Shown here piece by piece: positions 49,734 through 64,000 of a stretch of DNA of 64,000 bases. Within the stretch, counting starts at the first letter, position 1. The number at the start of each line of letters is the position of its first letter. Source of the DNA: an uncultured Gemmatimonadaceae bacterium (GTDB taxonomy: Bacteria; Gemmatimonadota; Gemmatimonadetes; Gemmatimonadales; Gemmatimonadaceae). The notes below the pieces were generated by a model. It ran no database searches, had not been told where the DNA came from, and saw only the letters and a list, made by a program, of their open reading frames with translations. The stretch is taken from positions 608,001-672,000 of the forward strand of contig CAWAGQ010000004.1 in NCBI GenBank assembly GCA_963781585.1, given 5' to 3'. The translations under genes and the position numbers were made by a program.

Positions 49734-49789
49734 TGCCCAGGACGAGACTCGAACTCGTAAGGGCCGAAGCCCGGCGGATTTTGAGTCCG
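49734..49789 (-). tRNA. 3' fragment (56 nt) of tRNA-Leu(CAA); duplicated att core of the integrated element, not an intact tRNA
   Basis: Minus strand CGGA-CTCAAAA-TCCG anticodon arm, long variable arm, ACGAG-TTCGAGT-CTCGT T arm, CCTGGGC-A acceptor; D arm and 5' acceptor strand are absent. Confidence 0.88.
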
Positions 49790-49901
49790 AACAACGACGG
49801 GTGCGGTGTTTGCCGGTGTTCGCCGATGTTGTTGTGTGAGCGACCGTTAGGCACTTCGGTTCATGTGCTGCGGGAAGCATGTTTGACGATGTTTTGCGGT
49901 G

Positions 49902-49934
49902 GTTCTAGCACAGTTCTAGCACAGTTCTAGCACA
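49902..49934 (+). repeat. 3 x 11-bp tandem repeat GTTCTAGCACA, likely integrase arm-type binding sites
   Basis: Perfect triplication about 110 bp inside the att core. Confidence 0.75.
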
Positions 49935-49951
49935 ATCAACCAGGAAGGCCA

Positions 49952-50977
49952 GTGCACACGACACCTGATCTGGAGCTGTTGCGCTCTGTTGGAAGCGGCC
50001 AAGTCTGGGCCATCGACCCCGATCGGTTGGAGGCCGTGCTCGGCCTTGCCACGCTCCGCGGTGCGCAGGCCGGACCGGAGCGCCGAGGCGTGTTGGCCCC
50101 GCGCGCTCCGCTCGTTACGGGCGGCGTCGCCGTGCTGCCGATGCATGGCATCCTCGTGCATCGCGCGTCGCCGCTCGCGAACCCGCTCGGTGCGGTGACA
50201 TCCACCGAAGCGGTGGGCCGGTCGTTGGACGACCTGCTCTCCCACGGGACGGAGACCATTGTGCTGGAGGTGGACTCGCCCGGCGGGGAATACGACGGCG
50301 TTCCAGAACTTGCGGACAAGGTATTTCACGCGCGGAGCCGGGCGCGCATCATCGCCGTGGCGGATAGCCTGGCGACGGCTGGCGCGTACGTCGTGGCTGC
50401 GGCGGCTGGTGAACTGGTGGTGAGTCCGTCGGCGGTCGTGGGCGGGCTCGGCGTCTTCACCATGCACGATGACTTCTCGGCGATGTTCGAACGGGTCGGG
50501 CTCACACGGACGGTGGTGCGGGCGCCAGCCTCCAAGGCCGAAGGCGCGGGGAATCTCCCGCTCAGCGCGGCGGCCCGCACGGCGCTCCGGGCGACCGTGC
50601 AGACGGTGTACGCGACATTAGTGGAGTCCGTGGCGCGCGGCCGGGCCGTCACGCCCGCAAGGGTTCGCGACGGGTTCGGCCAGGGGCGTACGGTCATGTC
50701 AGAGCGCGCCGTGCGAGAGGGCATGGCCGATCGCGTGGCCACGCTCGAAAGCGTCGTGCGCGCGTATCAGCGGAGCGCGCCGCCTCTTGGCCGGAACGCC
50801 TTCCGGGCGCCCGCGGAGTCCCCGCCGTTAGATGCTGATGCGCCTGGCGCATGGATCCGCTGCGATGCCGACGACGCCCCTGATCCATTTGCGGTAGAGT
50901 GGGATCGGTTCTATCGGCCGCGCGACGGAGGGAACGCCGCGGTACTTCGTCGGCGGCTCGAGTTGGAAACCGACTGA
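49952..50977 (+). CDS. S49 (SppA/prohead-protease-like) peptidase homologue, nucleophile Ser apparently replaced
   Basis: VAVLPMHG, IVLEVDSPGG, ELADKV, FGQGR, GMADRVAT; LATAGAY in place of AASAAY and GGLGV in place of GSIGV. Confidence 0.85.
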   Translation: MHTTPDLELLRSVGSGQVWAIDPDRLEAVLGLATLRGAQAGPERRGVLAPRAPLVTGGVAVLPMHGILVHRASPLANPLGAVTSTEAVGRSLDDLLSHGTETIVLEVDSPGGEYDGVPELADKVFHARSRARIIAVADSLATAGAYVVAAAAGELVVSPSAVVGGLGVFTMHDDFSAMFERVGLTRTVVRAPASKAEGAGNLPLSAAARTALRATVQTVYATLVESVARGRAVTPARVRDGFGQGRTVMSERAVREGMADRVATLESVVRAYQRSAPPLGRNAFRAPAESPPLDADAPGAWIRCDADDAPDPFAVEWDRFYRPRDGGNAAVLRRRLELETD

Positions 50978-51046
50978 TATGCTCTATGCCGCGTCGTCCG
51001 AACAAGCCGCCTGACGAAGCTTCGCGATGGTTAGGGCACAGAAAGG

Positions 51047-51136
51047 GCACAGTCATCCAGGAGGGCCATGTGCACATGACACGCGATTTCGAGCTGTTGC
51101 GCTGCGTCGGGACGCGGCCAAGCCTGGGCGATCGAC
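51047..51136 (+). repeat. Degenerate copy of 49930-50017 (island-end repeats and S49 5' end)
   Basis: Aligns base by base; encodes VHMTRDFELLRCVG versus MHTTPDLELLRSVG; preceded by two 11-bp ...GGGCACA units (51030-51051). Confidence 0.8.
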
Positions 51137-51256
51137 ACCACGCCGTTGCTAGAGGCGCACGGCGGCGCGCTGTCGGCTGACATGCTGCCCGAGTCTAGCC
51201 TTACCACTGCTGACGGGCTATTGTCTCGTCCCTCCCTGAGCCCGAGGAATGAGAGC

Positions 51257-51697
51257 TTGAGAATCGCGCTAGCCGCCGTATGTGACTACGCAATAATGGA
51301 CCAAAGCGGCAAACTGAGCCTCCTTGGGTTATTCGATGAGTTGCGAGCCGTCTCCTTCCCGGTGGCGCATCCGCGGATGTTTGTATGTCTCCGGATCCAG
51401 TGCGAGCCGATTGAGGCTAACACTCAGCACAGGTTGCAGATACGCTTGCAGGACGCTGATGGGAACCTTGTCTTGCCGGAGGTATCCACGCAATTCACAG
51501 TGCCGGATCGGCGTGCCGATCAGCCACATATGGCCGTCCAACTTGTACTAGAGATGGGTGGCGTTCGCTTCCCGCGGGCCGGCGAGTACTCTTTCGAAGT
51601 GGCCATCGATGGCTCGCATGTTCAGACCCTTGCGATTCGTGTCCAGCAGTTCACCCCAGGAGGTCCCCAAGGCGGCCAGCGTCCGAAATTGCGCTAG
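51257..51697 (+). CDS. DUF6941-like protein
   Basis: AAVCDYA..GKLSLLGLFD..FPVAHP..FPRAGEYSFEVAIDG pattern; TTG start chosen. Confidence 0.65.
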   Translation: MRIALAAVCDYAIMDQSGKLSLLGLFDELRAVSFPVAHPRMFVCLRIQCEPIEANTQHRLQIRLQDADGNLVLPEVSTQFTVPDRRADQPHMAVQLVLEMGGVRFPRAGEYSFEVAIDGSHVQTLAIRVQQFTPGGPQGGQRPKLR

Positions 51698-51700
51698 ACG

Positions 51701-52009
51701 ATGGCGCGCCACGTGCCGGGCAGGGCTTGGAAACTTTATGCGCGGATGTTGAACAGTCGTGCGGGTTGGGGACAGCGCGACTTCCACAAGCTGTACAAGG
51801 GCTTCGGATTCGAGTGTCGGGAAGGACGCGATCGGGTCTATTTCCACCCCGATCATCGCGGTGTGATTCCGATAGCGATGGTTGCAAGACATAATGAACT
51901 ATCAAAGGCATATACCGACGACGCCATCGAGCGCGTCGGCCGGCTCATCGCCTTAGAGCAATTGACGCAGGAGAAAATACCAAATGAGTACGATGATGTT
52001 CACGGATGA
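51701..52009 (+). CDS. HicA-like toxin (divergent)
   Basis: FGFECREG.DRVYFHP..VARHNELSKAY; upstream of a HicB-like gene. Confidence 0.6.
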   Translation: MARHVPGRAWKLYARMLNSRAGWGQRDFHKLYKGFGFECREGRDRVYFHPDHRGVIPIAMVARHNELSKAYTDDAIERVGRLIALEQLTQEKIPNEYDDVHG

Positions 52010-52322
52010 CTCGATCACCGCCGTTCAGGTGAACGTTGACAATGTTGGTCGGAAGGTGTGGTGGGAGGAGACCCTTCCGAGTGGCGCGCAAGTCTGGGTG
52101 GCGCGTGACCTCGATCTACCTGGCTGCATCGTTCAGGAGGGCTCTGCGCCCGCAGCACTTGCGGCCCTAGAAGATGCGAGGCTGCACTATCGTGCTGTGA
52201 TGGCTGAAATTGCCCAACCCTCAGACGCTCCCGACGCGTTGCTTCCAACTAGCACCAGCGAGACATCGAGTGCCATACCGACAAAACTCTTCAGCTATCG
52301 GGATTTGCAGCCAGTAGGCTAA
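51984..52322 (+). CDS. HicB-like antitoxin
   Basis: WVARDLDLPGCIVQEGSAPAALAALEDA resembles the HicB partial RNase-H fold. Confidence 0.65.
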   Translation: MSTMMFTDDSITAVQVNVDNVGRKVWWEETLPSGAQVWVARDLDLPGCIVQEGSAPAALAALEDARLHYRAVMAEIAQPSDAPDALLPTSTSETSSAIPTKLFSYRDLQPVG

Positions 52323-52715
52323 ATCGTTAGGGAGCTCGGTGACAGCTAGCGCGGATTTGATCGCTCGACCACCGCGCGCAGGCTCTCAGTGAGTTCCCGG
52401 AGCTGCTCGAGCGCTTTGGCCGTTTTCCCGGTTTTGCGACATAGCGCCACCAGACGAGCCGCGTGAGCTCGTCGAGGGCTGCGCGGTCCGGGGCCGCGCT
52501 CACGAGGCGACCGAGCGCCGCGGCGCGGGGCGGTCGTGAGCTTCAATTGTCTCGGACCAGGCGCGCGCGTTTCAGCGTGATCAGGAGGACGAGCGCGGTG
52601 CTGTCCTCCCCTTCGGGATAGTAGTGGTCGAGATCGGCCCTGAGGCGCGCGAGCGCCGCCGGATCATCGGCGAGCCGGATGCGGCGCAGGTAAAGGCCGC
52701 CAGCTCGAGCGCGGG

Positions 52716-53291
52716 TCACTGGATAGTTGACCAGGCGGCTTTGTTGATGCAGCGCGCGTAGACGACGGAGAGGGCTCCGTCCTCGTCTGGTCCCCCGGGC
52801 CACATGGGTACGACGGCGCTCCCTTTGAAGAGAAGGCTGTCGAGTCGCCCGATCGGTAAGAATTGCGCGCGTCCTTCGCCATATCTCCACGTTCCATCGC
52901 GCCAACGGAAAACCATGGAAAGACGTGCCCAGAACGGCGCATGACCATCCGGCTTGGCCAGCAGAACGCCAATGCTGTCAGGCTCCGGTGAAAAAACCAT
53001 CTCAGCGATCTCGAACGAGACGGGCGCTGAGTACGGCGTCACCAGGCTCGCCGTCTTCTGCACGTCGAAAAGCACATTCTGAATAGCACATTGGACGCGG
53101 CCGAACTTGCCGCGATACTCGCTCGTCGAATCGAATTGCCAAATCACGCGCGCCTTCTGTACGGAGTCGATCTTCCGAGCGAGTGCCAGTTCGAAGTCCT
53201 TCGCGATCCGCGCTTCATTTACCGCCTGCGCGGGCAGATGCGTGGCCCCGAGCACGAGAGCGGCGAAGCCACATCTGCAAGCTTTGGACAC
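52716..53291 (-). CDS. Hypothetical exported protein
   Basis: GGAGG RBS before GTG 53291; signal peptide ending AQA. Confidence 0.55.
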   Translation of the reverse strand: MSKACRCGFAALVLGATHLPAQAVNEARIAKDFELALARKIDSVQKARVIWQFDSTSEYRGKFGRVQCAIQNVLFDVQKTASLVTPYSAPVSFEIAEMVFSPEPDSIGVLLAKPDGHAPFWARLSMVFRWRDGTWRYGEGRAQFLPIGRLDSLLFKGSAVVPMWPGGPDEDGALSVVYARCINKAAWSTIQ

Positions 53292-53559
53292 GGTAACCTC
53301 CATTACGATTCTGGCGACGCCGGCAGCTAACCGGCAGCTAAATGCGCCGGCAGTAGGCGGCGAAACTCTGCGCGGTCATCTTGCCCGCCGCGTCGGAACG
53401 CGGCTCAGAAGGAGACAAGGGTCGCTCGATCTCATTGCGAGCTGAGGCGCCTGGCTCCGAATCCGCTGCCGCGTCAACAGGGCCGCTGGTGCGGTCCCGG
53501 GGGCATTCGACAGCGTCAGCCCTGAGGAGCCATAGCGCCACGAATTTCCCAATACGCAT

Positions 53560-54291
53560 TTACGCGGTCACCGATTCGGTGTCGTGAGACCGCCGCTCTG
53601 ATGGAGGGTCGGCTTGCCAGCGTTCCTGCCATGCGCGGAGCATCTCCTCTAGGAACGCCGTCGCCCGGTGCCGAAATACCGAGTTGAAAGACGCTTCAAG
53701 CTCAATTTGTTGTTCTTGCTGCGTGAGCGTTAGCCCAACGTCCCTCTGCTCGAGACGCCGCACGATTTTTCTGCGATTCTCTCGCACCTCGCCGCGAGCA
53801 TGGATGAGGAGATTTCGAACTTCTCCGTACTCCAATAGCTCGTTCCACTGCGGCTCGGCTGGAGACGCGAGCGCGGCTACCTTGGTGAGGAATGTTCTCG
53901 CTTGGCGGATGCCAGTTCCACGCAGGTCCGTTCGCGCGACGCGCTGCGGCGCAAAGTAATGAACCAGGTCGCAAGTTCGAATCAGGCCGTGCTCCAACGT
54001 GCCGTAGGCCATGAGGAAGAGCGCGGCACGCTGGATCTGCGGGAAAGCCCAATCTGCCATCCCGTGTTCCAGTAAGAGCTCCGTGTATTCGCTCGCCGAC
54101 CGCTTCGTGCCCTCCACGAGGGCAGCCCGCGCCGTAGCAGAAGCGTTGTTCATGGCGACTTCCGACAGCTCGTGCAACCGCTGGACGTGGTACAGGCGCT
54201 CAAGCGTGGTCGATATTGCGAGCACGCCGTAGTCGCGAACGAGTTGAAAAGGTGCGCGCGATTTAGCAGGCGGTCGCTGCTCGGGGGTCAT
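53560..54291 (-). CDS. HEPN-domain protein (RxxxxH), candidate RNase/abortive-infection effector
   Basis: Helical protein with AYGTLEHGL, DLRGTGI and VRNLLIHARG. Confidence 0.65.
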   Translation of the reverse strand: MTPEQRPPAKSRAPFQLVRDYGVLAISTTLERLYHVQRLHELSEVAMNNASATARAALVEGTKRSASEYTELLLEHGMADWAFPQIQRAALFLMAYGTLEHGLIRTCDLVHYFAPQRVARTDLRGTGIRQARTFLTKVAALASPAEPQWNELLEYGEVRNLLIHARGEVRENRRKIVRRLEQRDVGLTLTQQEQQIELEASFNSVFRHRATAFLEEMLRAWQERWQADPPSERRSHDTESVTA

Positions 54292-54512
54292 CTCCCCCGC
54301 TTCCGCTTCCCATCGGTGGCGAGCAGTTCGCCGGGCTGAACGCCCAGGGCCGCGGCGAGGCGTTCCAGCACGTCGAGATCGATCCGGGACGTCGCGCCGC
54401 GCTCAATCTGAGAGATGGTGGCCTGGCGGACGCCGGCGAGCTCCGCGAGCGCCTCCTGCGTGAGGCCGCGCGCCGCGCGAAGATCCCGAAGCCGGAACCG
54501 GACCGGTGACAT
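54288..54512 (-). CDS. XRE-family HTH transcriptional regulator
   Basis: LRDLRAARGLTQEALAELAGVRQATISQIERG; ATGA-coupled to the HEPN gene. Confidence 0.9.
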   Translation of the reverse strand: MSPVRFRLRDLRAARGLTQEALAELAGVRQATISQIERGATSRIDLDVLERLAAALGVQPGELLATDGKRKRGR

Positions 54513-54519
54513 GCCGGCC

Positions 54520-54569
54520 AATATACGCTGAGGCGGATATTGACGGCAATACGCCCTGGCGTATATCCT
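54520..54569. promoter_or_regulatory. Divergent promoter with two related palindromic operators
   Basis: AATATACGC-TGAG-GCGGATATT (54520-54541) and ATACGCC-CT-GGCGTAT (54549-54564), overlapping TTGACG-N18-TATCCT. Confidence 0.7.
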
Positions 54570-54601
54570 TCAGGCACCACACTTATCATGGAGGCGAGAC
54601 C

Positions 54602-54883
54602 ATGCCAGCACGGATGACCGCGAACACGATACCCACGCCGGGACCGAGCGCGGCGTTTCTCGAAGGGCTGAGGCTCATCGAGACGATCTACAAGGAGTAT
54701 GGCCGTGCGTGGATCGCGCGGGAGATCGGCACGAAGGCCAGCGTCATCGCGGACTGGTACGCCGGGAAGCGGACGCCACTACCGAAACACGTTGACGGTC
54801 TGCTGGACCTAATGCTTTCCGCGTACCCATCAGGCTCCCGGCGGGCGGAAGAGTGCATTGCCGCCGCCCGGGAGTCGGGTTGA
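54602..54883 (+). CDS. Cro-like HTH protein
   Basis: GGAGG RBS; AWIAREIGTKASVIADWYAGKRTP; divergent from XRE. Confidence 0.65.
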   Translation: MPARMTANTIPTPGPSAAFLEGLRLIETIYKEYGRAWIAREIGTKASVIADWYAGKRTPLPKHVDGLLDLMLSAYPSGSRRAEECIAAARESG

Positions 54884-55097
54884 CAGCATCGGGAATCCGG
54901 TGAGGGGATGGATCGAGCGCCGAGGGCGTTCGCGCTCTGCGCCGTCGGTAGGTTCTTGCTGATCCGGGCGGCGCTCCGGATTATACAGACCGGTGCGAAA
55001 CCATTCTTGCAGGTCGGCGCGAAGGCGTTGCGCCGATCTGCACGCACGCTATAAGGCTGGTCGGCCGACAGGTTTCCGGACGAACGATTCAAAGTAT

Positions 55098-55104
55098 GTT
55101 ATGC
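55098..55104 (+). other. Integron core site GTTATGC at the start of cassette 1 (attI-like context)
   Basis: Exact complement of GCATAAC at the end of the same gene; preceded by ATTCAAAGTAT. Confidence 0.65.
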
Positions 55105-55129
55105 GGACTGAGTAAGGACGAAGACCACG

Positions 55130-56002
55130 ATGACCTCACTGAAGTACTCGAAGCCGGAACGTATCTGGTTGAAGGACCATCCTGATTTGGATGAGCGCTG
55201 GCTTCAGGACCGGATCGGTGAGGATCCGGCACTCCTCGGCCTTGGAGACTTGGTCCTGAAGGATCGAGAGCGACCGCAGCCTCGAGCTGGGCGGCTCGAC
55301 CTGCTACTTCAAGATGCGGAGACCAACAAGCGCTACGAGGTCGAGGTGCAGCTCGGCAAGACCGATGAGGCGCACATCATCCGCACCATCGAGTACTGGG
55401 ACATCGAGCGGAAACGATATCCGCAATATGACCACACGGCGGTGATCGTCGCCGAGGATATTACCGGCCGTTTCCTTAACGTCATCAGCCTATTCAACGG
55501 TTCCATTCCCCTTGTCGCCATTCAGATGAGCGCGGTCCGGCTCGGCGATTCTGTATCGTTGATCTGTTCGAAGGTTCTCGACGAGATGCGCCTTGGCCTC
55601 GTGGACGAGGACGAGGAAGTCCAGGCAGCAGCGGACCGGTCGTATTGGGAGGCTCGAGCAAGCAAACACACCCTGGCGATGGCGGACGAAATGCTCGAAG
55701 TGGTTCGTGCTTTCGATCCGCAGCTCGAGCTCAAGTACAACAAGTTCTATATCGGCCTGGCCAAGGGTGGTCAGCCAAACAACTTTGTCATCTTCCGTCC
55801 GAAGAAGGACTGGCTTCGGCTTGAAGTGCGCCTCGACCGCTCAGACGAGACGCAAGCACAGCTCGATGGATCGGGTCTCGACGTCATGGACTACGATTCC
55901 CGATGGGGGCGGTACAGAATCCGCCTCGCCAAGGGCGACACTACGAAGCACAGGGATTTCCTGGCGGCGCTCATGACGAAGGCATTCGCAGGGACCGCAT
56001 AA
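55130..56002 (+). CDS. Cassette 1: PD-(D/E)xK-like (NucS-like) nuclease domain plus DUF5655-like C-terminus
   Basis: ERWLQD..GRLDLLLQD..YEVEVQLG..HIIRTIEY; the stop TAA overlaps attC R''. Confidence 0.75.
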   Translation: MTSLKYSKPERIWLKDHPDLDERWLQDRIGEDPALLGLGDLVLKDRERPQPRAGRLDLLLQDAETNKRYEVEVQLGKTDEAHIIRTIEYWDIERKRYPQYDHTAVIVAEDITGRFLNVISLFNGSIPLVAIQMSAVRLGDSVSLICSKVLDEMRLGLVDEDEEVQAAADRSYWEARASKHTLAMADEMLEVVRAFDPQLELKYNKFYIGLAKGGQPNNFVIFRPKKDWLRLEVRLDRSDETQAQLDGSGLDVMDYDSRWGRYRIRLAKGDTTKHRDFLAALMTKAFAGTA

Positions 56003-56072
56003 CAAGCGTTTGCAGCCGACGGCGGCGTGTGAAATCGTTTGGTGCCGCCGCGGCTGAAACACAACGTTAGGC
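55997..56072 (+). other. attC recombination site (76 bp)
   Basis: GCATAAC-AAGCG-TTTGCAGCCGACGGCGGC...GCCGCCGCGGCTGAAAC-ACAAC-GTTAGGC: R''/L''/L'/R' architecture, imperfect palindrome. Confidence 0.88.
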
Positions 56073-56096
56073 CGAAAACGCAAAGGGGAGGACTGA

Positions 56097-56759
56097 ATGG
56101 CTTGGTGGATGTGGATCCTCCTGGTGCTCGCCGGCTTCGGAGTGTTGGTGACCCTTGGCAAGCGGCGCCGCTTTCGCCTTCGGGCGACCATTCTCGTGCC
56201 AGAGCAGGGAGCACCAGAAGTCCACATCTCACCTGCGGCCCCTGAAGCTGATGACTTATGCTTGCTAGTGCTCTGTTACGCTGCCAAGATCCGCTGGGTT
56301 ATCCTCAGTGAACCCGTAGTTGTTCAAGAATTATTCGACGAACTCTGTGGCGAGGCGATCGACTCGTGGAGCGAAAGCGGCGGCGATTTGATCGACCGCA
56401 TGCCGTCGGCGCGTGGACTACGTGCGGCTCAAGACTTGCCCCGCGCCGTCCCCGGAGGAGAGCGATTCCAGATTGATCTCTTTCGGACGCAGTATACCAG
56501 CCTCCAGAACCACGCGTACGTCGTCAACACGCTTCCGATGCCGGGCTTGGCCCCGAACCTTCCTTGGAGTTGGCTGCTCATCGCAAATCACGTTGCGTCT
56601 CGGCTGCACTCGCATGATTCGGAGAGACTGCGCGAAGCACTGGCGAGCTGGTGTGACAGCGTCCACGGGGAGAGCGGCGAGCAATCAGTCGCAAGCCTCA
56701 AGAGGCTCTTCGCACTGAGCTTGGCCAGCCTCGCATCGGTACAGGCCGTGCGCGAATGA
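56097..56759 (+). CDS. Cassette 2: hypothetical protein with N-terminal membrane anchor
   Basis: GGAGG RBS right after GTTAGGC; MAWWMWILLVLAGFGVLVTLGKRRR. Confidence 0.75.
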   Translation: MAWWMWILLVLAGFGVLVTLGKRRRFRLRATILVPEQGAPEVHISPAAPEADDLCLLVLCYAAKIRWVILSEPVVVQELFDELCGEAIDSWSESGGDLIDRMPSARGLRAAQDLPRAVPGGERFQIDLFRTQYTSLQNHAYVVNTLPMPGLAPNLPWSWLLIANHVASRLHSHDSERLREALASWCDSVHGESGEQSVASLKRLFALSLASLASVQAVRE

Positions 56760-56774
56760 GTCGTAGCCGTTTCG

Positions 56775-56863
56775 GCCTAACAACGTTTGCTGCTGGCAGC
56801 CGGAGCTGACCTGCTCGGACGTCCGAATCTGCCCGCCACGCGGCTCGAACGCGCGAGTTCGGG
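56775..56863 (+). other. Second attC site, degenerate
   Basis: GCCTAAC (complement of cassette-2 start GTTAGGC)-AACGTTTGCTGCTGGC...GCCACGCGGCTCGAACGCGCGA-GTTCGGG. Confidence 0.6.
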
Positions 56864-56980
56864 TACGACGCGGGCGACTCGTGGAAAAAGGGCACGCCCT
56901 ATGACCATCGTCGGGATGAGGGCGAGGCTGGCGACGGAGCGACTGTCGCCTAACGGTTTCGTCACGCCATTTCGCTGTTG

Positions 56981-57008
56981 AAGGCCCGGCTCAATGGCCG
57001 GGCTTTTT
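56981..57008 (+). terminator. Intrinsic terminator after the cassette array
   Basis: AAGGCCCGGC-TCAATG-GCCGGGCTTTTT. Confidence 0.8.
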
Positions 57009-57040
57009 GTTTGCCTGTCCGACTTCGGCGGTCGATTCCA

Positions 57041-57241
57041 GCACCCGCCGAGCAGGAAGCGCGGGAACGTGAAAAGACGAGCAATGCGAGTAGGGCACTA
57101 ATGCCCGACTCGGACAAACGCCGCGCCCGCGACGATGCGGCGAAGCTGGTTGGCGTCTCCCCGCGCTACGTGCAGGACGCGAAGGCGATCAGTCGGCGGG
57201 CGCCGGGCGGAGACGACCTGGTCTCAGGCGCATCCGCATAA
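57041..57241 (+). pseudogene. Fragment of a ParB/Spo0J-type HTH protein
   Basis: ARDDAAKLVGVSPRYVQDAKAI with no credible start, directly after a terminator. Confidence 0.45.
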
Positions 57242-58079
57242 TTGCGTAATTTTGTCCCTTGTGCTCCTGAAACTTAGGTTGGGTCGGCAGCCGTTGGAGT
57301 CGCCGCTCGAGTTGCTCATGCTGCCGTGGGGTAACGAGCACCCACTGGTTAAGTGGCCACGCCTTCCATGCGCTGCTCCCCCATTGTGGCATTTCCCCGC
57401 GGCTCACCTTTTCGGCCGCCACGCTCCCGATGAAATCGGCGAGCGTGCGAAATGGTCTCGCATCTTTGCGCCGCTGCTGATTACGCCGCGGCGGCCGCGC
57501 GAAGGACGGCAACGGCGCCAACTCCAGATGATGAGCGGTCAAGGCGCACAGATCCCCAGCGATCGCCGCATACGGTGATCGAGATTCGGTCATCAGCCGA
57601 TGAAGTTCCCGTAGCTGCTCGTACAGGGCTCCGTCCCGGCTTTTGAGCACCTCAACTAACCGCTCATGGCTCCCGCGGTACTTTCGGACGATTTCCGCCA
57701 ACAGATCGTCGGGCCACGGAACAGAGTAGTCGGCCAACGCGCGCACAATAGGACTTTGTCCGCGGCTCAATGTCTGGACAATGAAATCACGAAGGGTCGC
57801 TGGCAAGGATCGGCGGTCCGCTGCGGCGCTGAGCGACTCAGGGCCGTTCCCCAAGAGTAGCCACGTCGGGGAGCGGTGATACTCCGTGCAGATCCGAAGA
57901 ATCGTGCCTACATCAGGGGTCGCCGGGTCGCGCTTTCGCAACCACTTCCCGACCGTTTCGCTGGTCGAGCCGATGGCTTCCGCAAACGCCGCCGCGCCGC
58001 CGGCGTCCTCGACCACCAAATGCAACCGGTGGCTGATGGCACGGGAATCTGACGGCTCCGGTTTCGATCGACCCAACAA
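57189..58079 (-). CDS. CI/Stl-like repressor (N-terminal XRE HTH)
   Basis: AFAEAIGSTSETVGKWL...SPTWLLLGNGP; divergent from the replication operon. Confidence 0.7.
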   Translation of the reverse strand: MLGRSKPEPSDSRAISHRLHLVVEDAGGAAAFAEAIGSTSETVGKWLRKRDPATPDVGTILRICTEYHRSPTWLLLGNGPESLSAAADRRSLPATLRDFIVQTLSRGQSPIVRALADYSVPWPDDLLAEIVRKYRGSHERLVEVLKSRDGALYEQLRELHRLMTESRSPYAAIAGDLCALTAHHLELAPLPSFARPPRRNQQRRKDARPFRTLADFIGSVAAEKVSRGEMPQWGSSAWKAWPLNQWVLVTPRQHEQLERRLQRLPTQPKFQEHKGQNYAIMRMRLRPGRLRPAPAD

Positions 58080-58170
58080 TGCTCCGCGTTAAACTAGCAC
58101 CTCGGACAGTTTAACACCGAGTTCCCGTCATTAGCAATGTGCCCGTGACACACACACGGGAGAATCATTC

Positions 58171-58344
58171 GTGACATCGACTCTCATCGCGAATCTTCGG
58201 CCGGCGGCCGAAGAAGCGGCGCGGCGCGGGATCTCGCGGGAAGCGCTCGTACGAGCGATTCAGAAAAAGCGCATGCCTGGCGTGCGCATCGGCACCCATT
58301 GGTTCGCCGTGATCGAACCGGAAGAGCCGGGTGGGGCTTCTTGA
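58171..58344 (+). CDS. Excisionase/AlpA-like winged HTH (57 aa, below ORF-track cutoff)
   Basis: GGGAG RBS; AEEAARRGISREALVRAIQKKRMPGVRIGTHWF. Confidence 0.7.
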   Translation: MTSTLIANLRPAAEEAARRGISREALVRAIQKKRMPGVRIGTHWFAVIEPEEPGGAS

Positions 58345-58538
58345 ACCGGACGTACCATGCGTGCCCCGAAGCTCTAAAGGCGAAGCGCCCCAGCCGGTAT
58401 GTGCAAGGTGTCCGCGTCGCCATCGACGATCTCGACGCCCGGCTGCGGCACATCGAGGGCGAGGTCTGCACGCGCGCCAGGGTGCGTGCAGTGGCAAACG
58501 TGACGAACGCGCACGCGGTGTCTCTCCTCCGCAGATGA
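58341..58538 (+). CDS. Hypothetical small protein
   Basis: TTGA/ATGA overlaps with both neighbours. Confidence 0.45.
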   Translation: MNRTYHACPEALKAKRPSRYVQGVRVAIDDLDARLRHIEGEVCTRARVRAVANVTNAHAVSLLRR

Positions 58539-58738
58539 ACAACCTGCGCGTGGCGGACGCTCTGATCCGGCGCGGCGTCCCGACCGCGCCCGTGTCGGCG
58601 GTCGATAAGACACCGCTCGCCCAGCTTTTCGCGGATGATTCCGCGCGGCGCACTCCGGGGGGTCAGTCGGGACGGCCGCTACTACGTCGTCACGGGAACG
58701 GATGGCAGGGACTTGCGTGCGGTCGGCGGCAAACGTGA
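58535..58738 (+). CDS. Hypothetical small protein
   Basis: ATGA coupling to the previous ORF. Confidence 0.4.
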   Translation: MNNLRVADALIRRGVPTAPVSAVDKTPLAQLFADDSARRTPGGQSGRPLLRRHGNGWQGLACGRRQT

Positions 58739-58826
58739 CCGTCGCTGATACTGATGCACGTCCACCAAAAACAGGCGCCCCGCGGTCACGAGCCGCGAGG
58801 CGCTATGCCCCAACCTTCTCACCAGG

Positions 58827-59141
58827 ATGGAGCTTATGGCGAAGCTACGTAGTCGTTATGGGGTGCGCCAGCGCCCGGACCCTGCGGTCTCGCATCCTGC
58901 AATGCGCTCGCTCGGCGCGATCATGCTCGACGAGCATGATCGACGTCTGCTCGCGTGTTCGCTCCAAGCCTACGACCGCGCGTGGCGCGAACTGCCATTC
59001 AGCAAAGCGCGGTGTGCCACGGAAGTCCGCGCGGCTGTCACGCGCATGATCGCGCGCCTTCGCGGTGCTGACAAATTCATCCCCGCGGCCGAACAGGTCG
59101 ACGAACAGGTCGACGCTGCGATTGCGGCGCTGGGCGAGTAA
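58827..59141 (+). CDS. Hypothetical protein
   Basis: Helical ORF ending 3 nt before the helicase. Confidence 0.5.
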   Translation: MELMAKLRSRYGVRQRPDPAVSHPAMRSLGAIMLDEHDRRLLACSLQAYDRAWRELPFSKARCATEVRAAVTRMIARLRGADKFIPAAEQVDEQVDAAIAALGE

Positions 59142-59144
59142 CCG

Positions 59145-60452
59145 GTGCAATCTCGCGTCGATGCGTACGAGCCGCAGAATGACGAAGAGCTCGAGGACGT
59201 CCTCGGGTCGCCAGAGGGGAACGGCACGAAACCGCATCCGGCGAATGAGCCCGGACTCCCTTCCTTCGTGCGACTGTCCGAGGTGGCGCCTGACATCGCG
59301 ATCGAGTGGGACGCCGAGGACCTCTTTGTGCACGGAGAACCTGCGGTTCTGGCCGGGAGAGGGGCCACGTACAAGACGTCGACGATCCTCGCGATGGCCG
59401 GCGCCGTCGCGACGGGACATCGCGTCTTCGGGCGGTTCCATGTGCCCACGCCTGGTCCGTTCTGCTACGTCTCAGGCGAGGATCCGCCCGAGGTGATCCG
59501 CAACCGCCTCGAGGCCATTTGCCACGGCCACGGCTATAACGTGGCCGACGCGTTCGAGAACGTGCACGTGCTCGCGCTCTCCGGCATCGACCTCGCGGAA
59601 GAACGTTGGCGTCGACACGTCAGGGATGAAGTGCGCGCCATCGGCGCGCGGATGCTCGTGCTGGATCCGCTCGCCGAAGTGGACAGCGGCGAGGAGAACA
59701 ACAACGACGACCGCCGGCGCCTCGTACGCGCGATCCGGTGGTTCGGCGCGGAGACCGACGCGACGGTCCTGGTGGCGCACCACTTCCGCAAGAGCGCCGA
59801 GGGCGGAGACAAAGGTGATCTGATCCGGGGCGGTAATGCGCTCCCAAACGCGTCCCGGCAGACGTACGCCTTGGAACGCCTCGACGACGGGAGCGTGACC
59901 GTGGAGTGCGTGAAGTTCTCGCGGGCTGCGCGGCGACCACCCTTCGTGCTGCGGCCGATCATAGAGACCAAACCGGGCAACGAAGCGGTCTGGCTGAGTG
60001 CCCGGTTTGAATACGCCACGGCCTCCGAGGCCAAGTTCGACCGGGCGGAGGAATTCGTGCTCGAGCGCCTCACGCTCGGGGTCCGATTGAGCACCTCAGA
60101 CCTGAAGCTCGAGGCCAAGGGGACCGGTGTTTCCGGTGCCGATATTGCCCGGGCGCTGCGGGTGCTCGAGATGCGCCGGCTCATCAGTTTCGAGGCCGGG
60201 GAGAAGAATGCGAAGCTCTGGGGTCTGGTTGCCGGGCAAGCTGGGCAACCAGAGAATGTGCTTGCCCGGCAAACAGGCAGCTTGCCGGGCAACCAGAATA
60301 AGGCCGGTTCTGCTTGCCTTGCCCCCTTTAGGGGGGCAAGCAGAAACCGGCCGCCTAACGAGCACCGGCAACCAGACCCGCCCCCGAACCACGGCGAGGC
60401 CTGGGAGCCGCCTCTCGACGATTCGCAGGCAGCGATGTGGGGCGGCGCATGA
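59145..60452 (+). CDS. AAA_25/RepA-type replicative helicase
   Basis: Walker A AGRGATYKTS, YVSGED, Walker B LVLDPL, EENNN, VAHHFRK, IRGGNAL. Confidence 0.85.
   Translation: MQSRVDAYEPQNDEELEDVLGSPEGNGTKPHPANEPGLPSFVRLSEVAPDIAIEWDAEDLFVHGEPAVLAGRGATYKTSTILAMAGAVATGHRVFGRFHVPTPGPFCYVSGEDPPEVIRNRLEAICHGHGYNVADAFENVHVLALSGIDLAEERWRRHVRDEVRAIGARMLVLDPLAEVDSGEENNNDDRRRLVRAIRWFGAETDATVLVAHHFRKSAEGGDKGDLIRGGNALPNASRQTYALERLDDGSVTVECVKFSRAARRPPFVLRPIIETKPGNEAVWLSARFEYATASEAKFDRAEEFVLERLTLGVRLSTSDLKLEAKGTGVSGADIARALRVLEMRRLISFEAGEKNAKLWGLVAGQAGQPENVLARQTGSLPGNQNKAGSACLAPFRGASRNRPPNEHRQPDPPPNHGEAWEPPLDDSQAAMWGGA
60227..60350. repeat. Putative replication origin (iteron-like palindromes)
   Basis: TTGCC(G/C)GGCAA at 60229, 60262 and 60282, then hairpin CTTGCCCCC-TTTA-GGGGGGCAAG. 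Confidence 0.65.
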
Positions 60453-60535
60453 GCCGGGCGCTGTGGACGCCAGCGCCGCTTCCGTTCGACCGGCGTGGCA
60501 TGACCTCGGCGTCCCGGCCATCCGAGGACTGACCC

Positions 60536-60973
60536 ATGACTCCTCCGGAGAGTCGCGCGATGCGGTTGGCGGCCGGCCTGGATCCGGTCAGTCGGCATGC
60601 GTGGTATGCATTCCTCCCAACCTTGGAGAAGCTGCTCGCCGAGCACCACGGTCTGTGCGACGCGATCCGCGCATCCGATGGCCGGGAGGCGCGAGCCGTG
60701 CGGGCCGCAGGCTATCGCGCGCTCAGAGCGATGCAGCCTTTGGTAGCGATCGTGTGCGAAAACGAAGAGCTACGCGCCCGTATCGCCCGCCTCGCGCCCG
60801 CTCATAAGGACGAGTCGTTAGGTCAACCCCTGCCTTCACCCTTCACTTCCGAGGTGCTCCCATGTTCTACCCTTTCCCCGAACTCGACGGGCAGCTCGCC
60901 TCGGCGCGGCGCCCGCTTCTCACCCGCGCGGAGCGCGAGCGCTGGTGCGCAGAAACGGCGCCGTATGCCGTGA
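60536..60973 (+). CDS. Hypothetical protein
   Basis: GAGGA RBS, helical N-terminal two-thirds; C-terminus overlaps the next ORF. Confidence 0.45.
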   Translation: MTPPESRAMRLAAGLDPVSRHAWYAFLPTLEKLLAEHHGLCDAIRASDGREARAVRAAGYRALRAMQPLVAIVCENEELRARIARLAPAHKDESLGQPLPSPFTSEVLPCSTLSPNSTGSSPRRGARFSPARSASAGAQKRRRMP

Positions 60974-61064
60974 CCCTGGACGCCGACGGCCGCATAGTGA
61001 AGTCACCCCTGCGCCAGTCCGCGCCATCGCGCATCCGGCAGATGGCCATCAACGGACGGAACTG

Positions 61065-61265
61065 ATGACCACGCGATCGCGCCCTCAGAGCCCGGCTGAG
61101 CCGCCCGTCGGCGCCCGCCGGCTCATCGATTATTCGACCGGCTCGTTCTATCGCGAGCGGTTGTCCAGCGGCAAGCACATCACGTACCGGCGTGGGGCCA
61201 CGCCGGCGCATACGGACGCGGCGCGGCGCATCGCGCTGCTGCGCCTCGACCTCGCCACCCTCTAA
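61065..61265 (+). CDS. Hypothetical small protein
   Basis: TGATG coupling with ORF 60862-61065. Confidence 0.4.
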   Translation: MTTRSRPQSPAEPPVGARRLIDYSTGSFYRERLSSGKHITYRRGATPAHTDAARRIALLRLDLATL

Positions 61266-61282
61266 CGGGAGAACTCGTCCTC

Positions 61283-61973
61283 ATGCTGCCCGAATGGATT
61301 CGTGAAGTTCCCGGCTTCGCGCCGATGCTGAAGGAGTTTGACGAGAAGCAGCGGCGGCAGGCCGCGGTCGAGCGCACGCAGCTCCTCGCCGAGCGTGCGC
61401 GCATCATCGCCGAAGCGGAACGTGGCAATCGAGAGCGGTGGAAGGCGCGCGACGCTCGCGAAGGAGCGAGCGGAAGCGGCGTGGAAGGAATACCAAGCCG
61501 CGAACGCGGCGCTCGTGATCGTCATGGCCGCGGGACACAGCGCAAGTCACGCTGGGTCGCGTCAGCTGCAGCAGCTCGAGGCTCGGCTGCGCGAGTCAGC
61601 GTCTCCCGCTATCGCGGCAGCGCGCGCGCAGCTCGTGGAGCTACGCGAGCAGATCCGGCGCCTTGGCAGTGAGGGGTTCTATAGCCGAACGGCGACGCAT
61701 TTTCTCACTGGCGAGCGGGTCACGGCCGTATCCAACACGCAGGCGATCGCCCAGCGCGTGGATGCCATCGCGACCACGCTCCGCGCGCTCGATGAACTCG
61801 AACTCGTCGACGTGCGCGATCCGGAGGCTGAGGTCGCGACGATCCTCGCCGGCGTACCAGGCGGCGTGCAGGATCCGGCCACTGAGGCCGTGGTGTTCTT
61901 TGAGACGCGGCCAGTCAACCCGCCGGAAGCGCGGCGCTCAGGTGAGGTTACCCCGCTGGGACGTCGGCGATGA
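61283..61973 (+). pseudogene. Coiled-coil hypothetical protein with +1 frameshift near 61448
   Basis: The protein-like frame switches at AAG GCG c GCG ACG from ORF 61283 to ORF 61338-61973. Confidence 0.6.
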
Positions 61974-62168
61974 GGCCGCGCGTCCGGCAGGCCGGAGTCG
62001 GCCTTCGCAGCGCATGGCGCGGGAACTCGCAGACCCACCCCGGGGTCGGTCCGATCTCTGTGATCGGCCGCGTTAGGGACCGTGGCCAGCCCTCAGCGCG
62101 CCCTGGGCAGGTTTTGCGAGCCGAAAGTGCCCGGCAGGACCTTCGCAGAACGAGCGGAGGCTGAAACG

Positions 62169-62657
62169 ATGCGTGGTCCGCCGAAGAAACCGACCGCCGT
62201 CAAGCTGATCGAGGGCACCTTCCGCCGGGATCGTGCGCCGAGGCGCGAGCCGCGTCCGGTGCCAGGCGTTCCCCGGCGCCCCCGCTGGCTCGATGCCCGC
62301 GGCGCGACGAAATGGCGACAGCTCGTGGCCATCCTCGGTCCAATGCACGTGGTGACCGTGGCCGACGGCGATGCGCTAGCGCTGGCTGCGGAGGCGTTCT
62401 CGCGATTCCTGGCGGCCAGGGATGCGGTCCGACAGTTCGGCACGGTCTACAGTTCGGCGACCCCGGCCGGGGGCACGATCGTCCGGCCCCGTCCGGAGTG
62501 CGCGATGGCGACGAGCACGTGGCGGGACTATCTGCGCGCGCTGCAGGAGTTCGGCCTCACGCCGGCGGCACGCGCCCGGGTGGAAGCGCGAGACGACGGC
62601 GGGAGCGAGACCGACCGGTTCCTGTTCGATGAGTCACGCCGCCGGCGTCGAGCGTAG
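62169..62657 (+). CDS. Phage terminase small subunit, P27 family
   Basis: GGAGG RBS; RGPPKKPTAVKLIEG, PRWLD..KWRQL, EFGLTPAARARV. Confidence 0.9.
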   Translation: MRGPPKKPTAVKLIEGTFRRDRAPRREPRPVPGVPRRPRWLDARGATKWRQLVAILGPMHVVTVADGDALALAAEAFSRFLAARDAVRQFGTVYSSATPAGGTIVRPRPECAMATSTWRDYLRALQEFGLTPAARARVEARDDGGSETDRFLFDESRRRRRA

Positions 62658-62666
62658 GAGAGCCGA

Positions 62667-62807
62667 ATGACAACATCACAGCAGCATGGCGATGAGCTGA
62701 TGCTCTTGCGGGCCAGGTACGACGCGCTGGCCGCCGAGGCGGTGCGGCAGGCGATTCTCTCCGGCGGCTCGCTCAAGATCGATGTGGAGGGCATCACGGA
62801 GCCGTGA
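62667..62807 (+). CDS. Hypothetical 46-aa protein
   Basis: AGGAG RBS; GTGA overlap with the next gene. Confidence 0.5.
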   Translation: MTTSQQHGDELMLLRARYDALAAEAVRQAILSGGSLKIDVEGITEP

Positions 62808-63142
62808 CGTCTCCTCTTGCGGGCCAACTCGAGGCGCTCATCGAGCGCGCGACGGCAGAGGAATTGCCGACGCTCGCGGGAGCGTTGGCGACCGCGCTCG
62901 CGAGCGTGCTGGCGCGCGTATCGACGCCGGCCGCAGGGCCGACCCTTTCCCGGCCGCACACAACCTCTGACGGGCTCCTGGACGTGCAGCAGGCGGCCGA
63001 GCGGCTCGGGGTAGCGCCGACGTGGCTCTACCGACATGCCAGCAAGCTCCCCTTCACCCGGAAACTCGGGCACAAGACGCTCCGCTTTGACGCCCGCGGC
63101 CTCGATCGCTGGGCCGCGACGCGCGCCACGTCGCATGCTTGA
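62804..63142 (+). CDS. Excisionase-like HTH_17 protein
   Basis: LLDVQQAAERLGVAPTWLYR..LPFTRKLG..LRFD..LDRW. Confidence 0.82.
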   Translation: MTSPLAGQLEALIERATAEELPTLAGALATALASVLARVSTPAAGPTLSRPHTTSDGLLDVQQAAERLGVAPTWLYRHASKLPFTRKLGHKTLRFDARGLDRWAATRATSHA

Positions 63143-63177
63143 CATCATGCACCGGTCGGTAACACATTGGTACCAGC

Positions 63178-63423
63178 ATGAACGCCGTCACTCGCACCAT
63201 GCAGCGGATCCTCGCTGACTCGCCGGTGAGCCTTCGGGAGATTGCCCGGCGGTGCGGGGTGTCGCATGTGCAGCTCGCACGGATCGTGAATGGTGAACGC
63301 AACGCGACGCCGGCCGTGGCCGCCGCAGTGGCGACGGCGCTGGAGACACTCGGGGCCGACTGTACCGCGCGTGCGAAGCGGGTGCGGCGTTCCTTGGCCA
63401 CATCAGGCAAGGGGGAGCGATGA
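63178..63423 (+). CDS. XRE-family HTH protein
   Basis: SLREIARRCGVSHVQLARIVNGER; ATGA-coupled to the integrase. Confidence 0.8.
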   Translation: MNAVTRTMQRILADSPVSLREIARRCGVSHVQLARIVNGERNATPAVAAAVATALETLGADCTARAKRVRRSLATSGKGER

Positions 63424-64000
63424 GAGACGCGACGAAGAAGCGCGCCGAGCGTGGCGCCGGAGGGCTCTACCAGCGCGGCGGTCTGTGGTGGATTCGCTAT
63501 AGCTATCGGGGAAAGCAACTCCGCGAGTCGAGCGGCTCCGACGTGCGGAACGACGCCGTGAAGCTCTTGCGGCGGCGTCTGGCCGAGATGGGATCCGGAA
63601 AGCTCATCGGTCCGGACGCCGAGCGCACGTCGTTCGACGACCTGGCCGACATGGTGATTGCTGACTATCGGCTCAATGGCCGGCGCTCGACTCGACGGGC
63701 CACCGAGGCGCTTGCGCGGCTTCGCGGCTTCTTTGCGTTCGCGCGCGTGCCTGACGTGACGAGCGATCGCATCGCCCGCTACATCACACAACGGCAAGAG
63801 GACAGCGCCGCGGCCGCGACGATCCGATACGAGCTGTCGATGCTCAAGCGCGCCTTCACGCTCGGCATGCGCGCCGGCAAGGCCGCGACGCGCCCCTACA
63901 TCCCCACGGTGGCCGTCGATAACGCTCGCAAGGGATTCTTTGAGCCCGCAGACTTCGAGGCCGTCGAGACGCACTTGCCGGCGCCGCTGCAGCCGCTCAT
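63420..64000 (+). CDS. Tyrosine recombinase/phage integrase, N-terminal part (truncated by window)
   Basis: Arm-binding domain GLYQRGGLWWIRYSYRGKQLRESS, SAM-like core (AATIRYELSMLKRAF), NARKGFFE; not in the ORF track because there is no stop. Confidence 0.88.
   Translation, partial: MRDATKKRAERGAGGLYQRGGLWWIRYSYRGKQLRESSGSDVRNDAVKLLRRRLAEMGSGKLIGPDAERTSFDDLADMVIADYRLNGRRSTRRATEALARLRGFFAFARVPDVTSDRIARYITQRQEDSAAAATIRYELSMLKRAFTLGMRAGKAATRPYIPTVAVDNARKGFFEPADFEAVETHLPAPLQPL

Follow-up and report, generated by a model that had tools for sequence, protein, structure and literature searches.

What kind of mobile element occupies the tRNA-Leu(CAA) locus of an uncultured Gemmatimonadaceae bacterium, and how could it spread while carrying almost none of the genes that build a phage particle? 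The locus lies at the right end of a stretch of 64,000 nucleotides of this genome (NCBI GenBank assembly GCA_963781585.1, contig CAWAGQ010000004.1; G000:C4:608001-672000; hereafter the window), and an earlier note, made from the sequence of the window alone, had described it as a phage satellite resembling the phage-inducible chromosomal islands (PICIs). We consider the element to be integrative, self-replicating and capsid-less and, probably though not beyond reasonable dispute, to live as a PICI-like satellite on an exogenous phage of HK97 type. The head module of such a phage comprises a P27-type small terminase subunit gene (terS), a large terminase subunit gene (terL), a portal, an S49 protease and a major capsid protein (MCP). 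Since it encodes functions for excision, copying and the steering of packaging and almost no particle genes, it most likely spreads by hijacking another phage; helper-dependent induction and packaging are what its architecture and the comparison with related islands lead us to infer.

The element is a bounded integrative element of satellite size. It spans 14,930 bp including both attachment (att) cores, or 14,818 bp between them, and is framed by an exact 56-nt direct repeat (49734-49789 and 64608-64663). The left copy is a displaced 3' piece of tRNA-Leu(CAA), while the right copy, past the end of the window, forms the 3' part of the intact tRNA-Leu(CAA) gene (64608-64691, minus strand; ARAGORN, with an Rfam score of 53.7 bits). 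ARAGORN found no tRNA within the window itself; on the extended contig (locus L002, where the window coordinate equals the L002 coordinate + 48000), the intact gene starts 608 bp past the window end, as the earlier note had predicted from the tRNA fragment on the left. Given that the repeat consists of 56 exact nucleotides of a tRNA, it is not a chance match, and an Rfam search of the element region returned tRNA only and no other family. No structural phage genes were detected to the right, where the integrase gene is followed by short repeats, the att core and the intact tRNA gene. The GC content of the element (64.6%, with 62.2% in the left half and 66.8% in the right half) is below that of the genome (67.0%), a value as low being found in 6.5% of 1101 genome windows of equal size. 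When the 19-kb locus was compared with 40 relatives, both flanks were present only in the same-genus genome G001, where the site is occupied by a sister element, so that no empty attB was seen. Scans for promoters and terminators gave no signal above that of shuffled sequences.

Integration and excision appear to be well provided for. The tyrosine integrase (366 aa; 63420-64520, plus strand, cut by the window at 64000; PF00589; phrog_1 E 2.9e-45) is complete once the extended contig is read, and its residues R203, K230, H300, R303, H326 and Y335 fall in columns invariant among six family members; judged by these residues it is catalytically complete. Three perfect tandem copies of the 11-nt repeat GTTCTAGCACA (49902..49934, plus strand) start 112 nt after the left core, and two further tandem copies, one with a single mismatch (64521-64542, plus strand), directly follow the integrase stop codon, the right core lying another 65 nt on. 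The copies all point the same way, and the eight matches found in L002 at up to 2 mismatches were reached by none of 200 shuffles. In the circular form the left and right copies would flank the core as candidate P' and P arm-type sites, to which the integrase presumably binds. The locus thus presents the R-K-H-R-H-Y catalytic set together with repeated predicted arm sites on both sides of the core, as expected of a lambda-type integration system. The sister element bears GGGCACAA twice, 11 nt apart, at the aligned arm position, and in two short metagenome contigs the GTTCTAGCACA repeats stand some 114 nt beyond a core of 91% identity; the geometry is conserved in all three, the other DNA of the two contigs being unrelated.

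Two small helix-turn-helix (HTH) genes precede the integrase gene, and both had been described as xis-like. This holds for the upstream one, an HTH_17 protein of the MerR/AlpA/excisionase type (112 aa; 62804-63142, plus strand; PF12728 E 2.9e-7; phrog_66 E 3.8e-6), while the downstream gene, which overlaps the start of the integrase gene, encodes an HTH_3 protein of XRE type (81 aa; 63178-63423, plus strand; PF01381 E 1.3e-7). A survey of 80 integrase-family loci, counted by hand, revealed that such an arrangement is common; here and below the comparison genomes are kin, so that their counts serve as description, not as statistics. Of the 80 loci, 37 have an HTH_17 homolog, mostly directly upstream of the integrase gene, 12 have an HTH_3 homolog and 51 have a tRNA gene that follows the integrase gene within about 500 nt; a terL-like probe match occurred at a single locus. 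Both att copies were within reach at 17 loci and delimit elements of 2.3-10.9 kb. The best relatives of the integrase (71-78% identity) come from Gemmatimonadota and Gemmatimonadaceae metagenome-assembled genomes (MAGs), in agreement with the lineage that had been guessed from the sequence; further relatives come from Acidobacteriota, Nitrospirota, Eisenbacteria, Verrucomicrobiota and more.

The gene upstream of this module encodes a P27-family small terminase subunit, as had been proposed (62082-62657, plus strand; PF05119 E 1.3e-17; phrog_83 E 4.2e-28), and scores above the curated cut-offs of TIGR01558 (50.9 against 45.6 bits) and PF05119 (64.5 against 24.7 bits). To describe the remaining content, 106 open reading frames (ORFs) of at least 60 aa (L002 940-17011) were compared with Pfam (E <= 0.01) and PHROGs (E <= 0.001), and 25 curated ORFs of the element with PADLOC and NCBIfam; distant or novel families may escape the Pfam and PHROGs scans, and several of the ORF sets submitted to PHROGs in this study were filtered by length and by GC content at third codon positions, so that small or atypical genes may be missed. 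No terL, portal, MCP, connector, tail or lysis family match was found among the 106 ORFs. The statement that the element lacks capsid, portal, terL and tail genes consequently stands for terL, portal, MCP and tail, but it had overlooked a head-morphogenesis homolog of the S49 family, which together with terS makes up all head and packaging matches.

This S49 head-maturation-protease homolog (341 aa; 49952-50977, plus strand; phrog_53 E 2.9e-55; PF01343 E 5.4e-21) carries Ala143 (codon GCT) in place of the catalytic Ser. In an alignment with Bacillus subtilis SppA (3rst) and four phage proteins, the nucleophile motif A-A/L-S-A-A/G-Y reads A-T-A-G-A-Y in the element protein, the Ser of the A-A-S-x-x-Y motif being present in all four phage homologs. 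An exhaustive HMMER search of 1.84 billion representatives gave 30,374 matches at E <= 1e-3, the best other match reaching 47% identity. In the alignment of the top 150, the nucleophile column holds Ser in 149 proteins and Ala only in the element protein, which thereby shows the loss of the canonical nucleophile and makes the homolog, on the strength of this alignment, a candidate pseudo-protease. The general-base Lys (K195) is conserved in 150 of 150. Set beside the S49 (SppA or lambda gpC-type) proteases of phrog_53, the protein is 35-47% identical along some 270 residues and retains most motifs together with the general-base Lys; it differs in the Ser to Ala change (1 of 150), in the Gly that replaces S165 of the VGSIGV motif and in having no adjoining portal or MCP gene.

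Between a pseudo-enzyme with a function and a gene in decay the odds are roughly even. That the gene is decaying and has no function, rather than encoding a pseudo-enzyme used against or with a helper phage, is a reading we rate only slightly below its opposite. It sits at the edge of the element, and 5 of the 38 columns conserved at 90% or more have changed (K131A, S143A, S165G, Q213R, F223L); the 33 retained tie with the lowest count among the 150 homologs (the others average 36.6, minimum 33). Moreover, a satellite-like island (L144) and a phage of the same phylum (L148) carry S49 homologs in which both the Ser and the VGSIGV motif persist, and inactivation is therefore not a general satellite trait. 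Set against this are a full-length ORF (341 aa, for a family median of 356) with a good coding score (114), the 33 conserved positions that persist, among them the general-base Lys and the GQGRTVM motif, and a retained basic C-terminal motif resembling that of the phage proteins. A truncated protease-MCP fusion was also considered and rejected: 105 of the 150 homologs are stand-alone proteins of 260-460 aa, fusions of at least 650 aa numbering 26, and tblastn with the C-termini of these 26 fusion proteins detected no MCP remnant downstream (best E 0.038).

Relatives of both head-type genes share one module in phages, as seen in IMG/VR, in which relatives of the protease homolog occur on 9 contigs (35-39% identity). 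They belong to a module of the form [HNH]-terS(phrog_83)-terL(phrog_9)-portal(phrog_12)-protease(phrog_53)-MCP(phrog_10), as annotated with PHROGs on 39 of the 86 listed plus-strand ORFs of five contigs, and one contig (L017) carries relatives of both the element terS and the element protease homolog.

Replication is predicted to depend on an AAA_25 replicative-helicase-like protein (435 aa; 59145-60452, plus strand; PF13481 E 1.7e-31), the helicase that had been recognised at this place. It aligns only to positions 495-694 of the 872 of phrog_906, i.e., to the helicase part of a primase-helicase. Its relatives in the phylum are often primase-helicase fusions of 578-716 aa, others being helicase-only forms of 415-473 aa. 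A cluster of TTGCCSGGCAA repeats with nested inverted repeats (60215..60385) lies in the 3' end of the gene, with 3 exact copies within 64 nt; the 5 matches counted were reached by no shuffle of the window. Folded as single-stranded DNA, the 171-nt cluster reaches -60.4 kcal/mol compared with -35.8 +/- 3.3 for shuffled sequences (z -7.4; 0 of 200 as stable), and it matches no Rfam family. In SaPI-type satellites an element-specific origin adjoins the replication gene; in the sister element, too, the helicase gene has a repeat at its 3' end, this one of 19 nt, different in sequence and present three times. The cluster is a candidate replication origin, or may be another protein-binding or packaging site. 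Divergent from the replication and packaging operon, a repressor-like protein (296 aa; 57189-58079, minus strand) combines an N-terminal HTH with a large orphan C-terminal region (phrog_8 E 1.3e-6, also phrog_4 and phrog_2328; PF15943 E 6e-5, below the cut-off). It had been called CI-like; the HTH matches are weak and N-terminal, Pfam detected no S24 peptidase domain, and a word-indexed search of 5.8 billion proteins found only the protein itself. Between the two genes, a 57-aa ORF (58171..58344, plus strand) without a Pfam match is a candidate Cro/Xis-like HTH protein, being weakly similar (E 0.093) to the HTH_17 gene found at the same position in the sister element.

The sister element of G001 occupies 16.8 kb between 56-nt cores identical to ours. 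The only proteins that the two elements share are the integrase (91% amino acid identity), the HTH_3 protein (73%) and the HTH_17 protein (52%). Its backbone nevertheless consists of an HTH repressor, a divergent HTH_17 gene, an AAA primase/helicase-like gene, a second HTH_17 gene, terS, an HTH_3 gene and the integrase gene. The terS gene belongs to another family (phrog_1482, 354 aa) and holds the same backbone position, the cargo being unrelated; no capsid, portal, terL or tail match was found among the 104 of its 118 listed ORFs that were scanned. An insertion sequence transposase (phrog_2331) interrupts the sister element at L013 6220-7420. In addition, its integrase stop codon and arm repeats are set apart by a further 1.6 kb or so (L013 15896-17430), whose minus-strand ORFs have no PHROGs match.

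Other islands resemble the element more loosely. Homologs of its AAA_25 protein were found in 13 of 400 other genomes of the phylum (a count that includes G204, flagged as unpublished), and all six contexts retrieved lie near tRNA genes. For these loci 76 of 163 listed ORFs were annotated, inside the putative islands of four of them. L042 (9.3 kb between 38-nt tRNA-Cys repeats) encodes an integrase, a primase-helicase and a 250-aa MCP-like protein, besides a phrog_83 terS (E 1.3e-8), and L044 (9.9 kb at tRNA-Arg) an integrase, a helicase and an MCP-like fragment. Annotation of six integrase-family loci (123 ORFs) added L095 (10 kb), with a protease-MCP fusion, a helicase and an integrase; L075, whose left end is out of reach and in which a phrog_83 terS is directly followed by a phrog_80 head protease, with one weak tape-measure-like match; and L066, with a weak terS and a primase. 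In L075, from Verrucomicrobiia, two overlapping frames at 2777-3882 (236 and 133 aa) both match the phrog_83 terS, which suggests a frameshift or a duplicated terS.

A census of P27 terS genes located 14 other loci in 13 of 400 genomes, none of them among the 93 genomes of the host's own family. At 5 of the 14 a terL gene adjoins, mostly with a portal gene too (tblastn with probes), L148 having the full set. At least 4 are integrase and primase/helicase islands without terL or portal (L144, L146, L150, L151), and the remaining 5 were placed in neither class; for the nine loci without a terL match, 100 ORFs of at least 150 aa were scanned. The order in L146, primase, terS, xis-like HTH, integrase and tRNA, is that of the element, and the succession of replication gene, terS, HTH gene, integrase gene and tRNA gene recurs in the sister element, L146 and L150. 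The gene order, which had been considered unusual, is in fact a recurrent one. Two of the islands encode protease-MCP fusions, one of 725 aa in an Eisenbacteria MAG (L095 4639-6813) and one of 698 aa in a class-level relative within the Gemmatimonadota (L144 6902-8995); these genes adjoin a helicase or terS gene, with no terL or portal detected. Such islands could be minimal capsid-forming satellites, intermediate between PICIs and capsid-forming PICIs (cfPICIs). Small tRNA-associated islands in which an integrase and a replication helicase are joined by an orphan terS, by some of the head genes or by both form a recurrent class, of which the element, by its gene content, is a member.

How does this content compare with that of described satellites? 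The PICI core list comprises an integrase, a regulator (alpA, merR or stl homolog), a primase-replicase, terS and possibly capsid morphogenesis genes, with no forbidden components, i.e., no tail, holin, portal or head-tail connector genes, and more than 99.9% of the PICIs in the survey that defined it come from Proteobacteria or Firmicutes (de Sousa et al., PMC10085698). Using Pfam and PHROGs domains rather than the profiles of SatelliteFinder itself, we find in the element an integrase, a terS and, at the domain level, the regulators (the HTH_17 protein of MerR/AlpA type and the HTH repressor-like gene); the replication module amounts to the AAA_25 helicase part without a primase domain. Capsid morphogenesis is represented by the nucleophile-less S49 homolog alone, which is not of the proteobacterial PICI capsid-morphogenesis family; the same survey mentions a serine protease as an occasional PICI component (PMC10085698). 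None of the forbidden components appears among the 106 ORFs. At this level the element resembles PICIs such as the SaPIs and EcCICFT073-type islands in its size (14.9 kb), its integrase and att sites, its MerR/AlpA-type regulator and putative repressor, its own terS, a replication protein beside a repeat cluster, accessory cargo and the lack of tail, lysis, portal and connector genes. It differs from them in its host phylum, in the order replication gene, terS, HTH_17, HTH_3, integrase and tRNA, with the integrase gene away from the repressor gene, in a replication protein reduced to a helicase, in a terS of the P27 (cos/HNH-associated) type and in a head-protease homolog without the catalytic Ser.

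Capsid-forming PICIs encode MCP, portal, head-tail adaptors and terL. They share with the element HK97-type head genes, including a prohead serine protease and terS, whereas none of MCP, portal, adaptors and terL was detected here, so that the element is no cfPICI; its relatives L095, L144 and L042, with a protease-MCP fusion or a short MCP-like gene and no terL or portal, stand between the two types. The phiRv1 and phiRv2 elements of Mycobacterium contain terminase, prohead protease and capsid genes. The likeness concerns gene content: integrated and about 10 kb long, they too combine an integrase with a small number of genes for head or packaging and have no complete virion module; our element belongs to another phylum, has no MCP and encodes a protease homolog inactive by sequence. 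Both phiRv elements have been classed as putative PICIs (PMC10085698). Marine virion-encapsidated integrative mobile elements (VEIMEs) are reported to combine a tyrosine integrase with AlpA-type regulators and a primase/helicase; terS, HNH or serine protease genes occur in some of them and a major capsid gene in none (Eppley et al., PMC9618062). They resemble the element as environmental islands of uncultured hosts with a tyrosine integrase, an AlpA-type regulator, a helicase and a terS, and differ in having been found inside virus particles, whereas the element is known from its genes, and in their habitats and hosts.

If the element is indeed a satellite, its life cycle may be outlined as follows. 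The HTH repressor-like protein would keep the rightward operon silent until a signal from a helper phage relieves it; the protein is an orphan without a detected S24 self-cleavage domain, as are Stl-type repressors. The HTH_17 protein and the integrase would then excise the element, and the helicase would replicate it from the repeat cluster at 60215-60385. The element terS could recruit the helper TerL (with HNH) to a packaging site on the element, whose DNA would fill helper capsids. The protease homolog might become part of helper procapsids and interfere by disturbing or remodelling the way they mature, or it may be a decaying relic. In the circular form the plus strand reads helicase, ..., terS, HTH_17, HTH_3, integrase, attP, protease homolog, DUF6941 gene and two ORFs. 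As this string crosses attP on one strand, expression of the left-end genes only after excision is possible, and the protease homolog and the three plus-strand ORFs that follow it could be co-expressed only in the excised form.

A bolder extension, which we regard as rather doubtful, is that the element represents an undescribed and widespread satellite group of Gemmatimonadota and other soil and freshwater phyla, in which an HTH_17-(HTH_3)-integrase-tRNA module is combined with variable subsets of an HK97 head module (terS; terS and protease; protease-MCP). The dead protease would here act as a decoy that is expressed after excision by read-through of attP, enters helper procapsids and blocks or re-sizes their maturation. 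No satellite-encoded inactive prohead protease was found in the titles and openings of abstracts that our search covered.

Several observations weigh against a satellite. The islands L076, L049 and L124 carry integrases of the same family without any terS or head gene found, and the integrase family is therefore not specific to satellites. Neither a cos nor a pac site was identified in the element; the helicase lacks a primase domain according to Pfam and PHROGs, as had been noted before; and the repressor assignment is weak, a single-sequence AlphaFold2 (AF2) model reaching a pLDDT of 39. In IMG/VR neither the element nor near-identical DNA turned up: the terS relatives are only 30% identical, an exact scan for the arm repeat gave 0 matches and the AAA_25 protein gave no relatives, a related-locus search of genome contigs with the latter also returning none. 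The five conserved positions lost by the protease homolog, described above, fit decay as well as a new function.

Nor is any helper phage known, and the host assembly contains none that is visible. This assembly, 93.5% complete with 7.2% contamination, gave 0 matches for PF05065 (HK97 MCP), PF03354 (TerL_ATPase), PF04860 (HK97 portal), phrog_10, phrog_9, PF03237 (Terminase_6N), PF04466 (Terminase_3) and PF05876 (GpA_ATPase), positive controls being matched in each of these searches, and tblastn of 26 element proteins against the genome found only an Xre paralog and a weak DUF6941 paralog. A prophage with a P27 terS, for which a search elsewhere in the genome had been proposed, was not found, the only PF05119 (Terminase_4) match being the terS of the element itself. 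The helper, if there is one, is exogenous or lies in the unassembled part. The dependence on an HK97-like cos phage that had been proposed finds a counterpart in phages of the phylum with the matching module, satellite behaviour being deduced from gene content and comparison. One such phage stretch, in an order-level relative (L148; G249:C64:1-10000), has a full head module with P27 terS, terL, portal, S49 protease and MCP; its protease is 37% identical to the homolog of the element, and it could serve as a model for the kind of phage able to act as helper.

Could the element be instead a defective remnant of an HK97-type prophage that has lost terL, portal, MCP, tail and lysis genes and no longer moves? 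We hold this to be quite improbable. It would account for a terS and a protease homolog belonging to one type of phage head module, for the loss of the catalytic Ser and four other conserved residues and for the lack of a helper in the host assembly. Yet att separates terS from the protease homolog, and in the circle the integrase gene and attP take the place where terL and portal would stand; this map therefore did not arise from a prophage by simple internal deletion. The att repeats are moreover exact over 56 nt, with arm-type repeats on both sides and an intact integrase, tblastn found no remnant of MCP, and of the terL, portal, MCP, tail and lysis genes expected of a complete or recently defective prophage none was detected within the 14.9 kb. 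The sister element and several other small bounded islands share the same terL-less architecture.

An origin as a non-parasitic genomic island, devoted to cargo or defence and moving by other means, with terS and the protease homolog as hitch-hikers or anti-phage decoys, also seems unlikely, if worth keeping in mind. The integrase family does mobilise many small islands (those of 2.3-10.9 kb at 17 of the 80 loci), some of them without a recognisable phage gene, the left half of the element is cargo-like, and its gene orf290 shows weak matches to phage-defence candidates. Against this reading, both the element and its sister carry a terS at matching points of the backbone, the two genes coming from different families, and terS or head genes turn up again in related islands within the phylum and beyond it. 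Pfam and PHROGs revealed no gene for conjugation or mobilisation in any of the 106 ORFs. We therefore retain the PICI-like satellite of an exogenous HK97-type phage as the probable nature of the element.

The left half of the element carries accessory cargo, made up of a DUF6941 gene, an Xre cassette and orf290. The DUF6941 protein (51146-51697, plus strand; PF22091 E 5.2e-35) follows the protease homolog and was considered as a possible capsid gene, which was rejected: the family is near-universal in the phylum, occurring in 268 of 300 other genomes with 1-3 copies each, often 2-3 (a count that includes four genomes flagged as unpublished), and the copy in the element is therefore an extra copy of a host family. 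PF22091 was matched in 0 of 14 well-known control genomes, which marks a lineage-typical family. A word-indexed homolog search returned nothing for DUF6941, and the ESM Atlas returned DUF6941 clusters only. Two small ORFs follow (102 and 112 aa; 51701..52322, plus strand), with weak coding scores and no match in Pfam, PHROGs, PADLOC or NCBIfam. On the minus strand, the cassette at 52543..54521 consists of an Xre-type HTH_3 regulator (54288-54521, 77 aa; E 2.4e-18) and then ORFs of about 243, 179-195 and 58-120 aa without a match in the same four databases. A paralog of the Xre gene (67% amino acid identity) lies on the same contig at G000:C4:268048-268269 and could mark another mobile element or a toxin-antitoxin-like cassette.

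The accessory gene orf290 (55130-56002, plus strand) matches the PADLOC models PDC-S11 (E 5.3e-5) and PDC-S18 (E 6.9e-5) weakly and DUF5655 below the cut-off (E 1.8e-4); by eye, its N-terminal motif gives the impression of a nuclease. The 1201-bp stretch that contains it (54873-56072) is 97.3% identical to an unrelated locus of G001 (L014 6392-7588; G001:C9), in which the copy is frameshifted, while the flanking chromosome of the two genomes is only 78-90% identical; from these identities the stretch looks like a recently exchanged cassette. The adjacent orf220 (56097-56759, plus strand) has no match in Pfam, PHROGs, PADLOC or NCBIfam, and no family match was found for the ORFs of 145, 67, 66-106, 183-211 and 64 aa located between the helicase and terS genes (60536..62164, plus strand). 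Among the latter, the 183-211-aa ORF (orf211) shows weak coiled-coil-type PDB matches and nothing in the ESM Atlas, and a single-sequence AF2 model of its shorter form, orf183, is all-helical with low confidence (pLDDT 50). PDB sequence searches of the repressor-like protein, orf211, DUF6941 and orf290 gave E values of at least 0.04 or no match.

To our knowledge, almost all described satellites are those of Proteobacteria, Firmicutes and a few Actinobacteria, and literature searches combining satellites with Gemmatimonadota or Gemmatimonadetes, or with phiRv elements, found no description of a Gemmatimonadota satellite. If the islands described here are satellites, phage parasitism reaches abundant and poorly cultured soil phyla, and the HTH_17-HTH_3-integrase-tRNA module with an orphan terS would be a practical handle in the search for more of them. 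Automatic annotation would label the nucleophile-less protein of the element an active head maturation protease, while a head protease of this kind offers a concrete candidate for a new device, be it for interference or for capsid remodelling; the dead-protease decoy, if true, would be a new mode of satellite interference.

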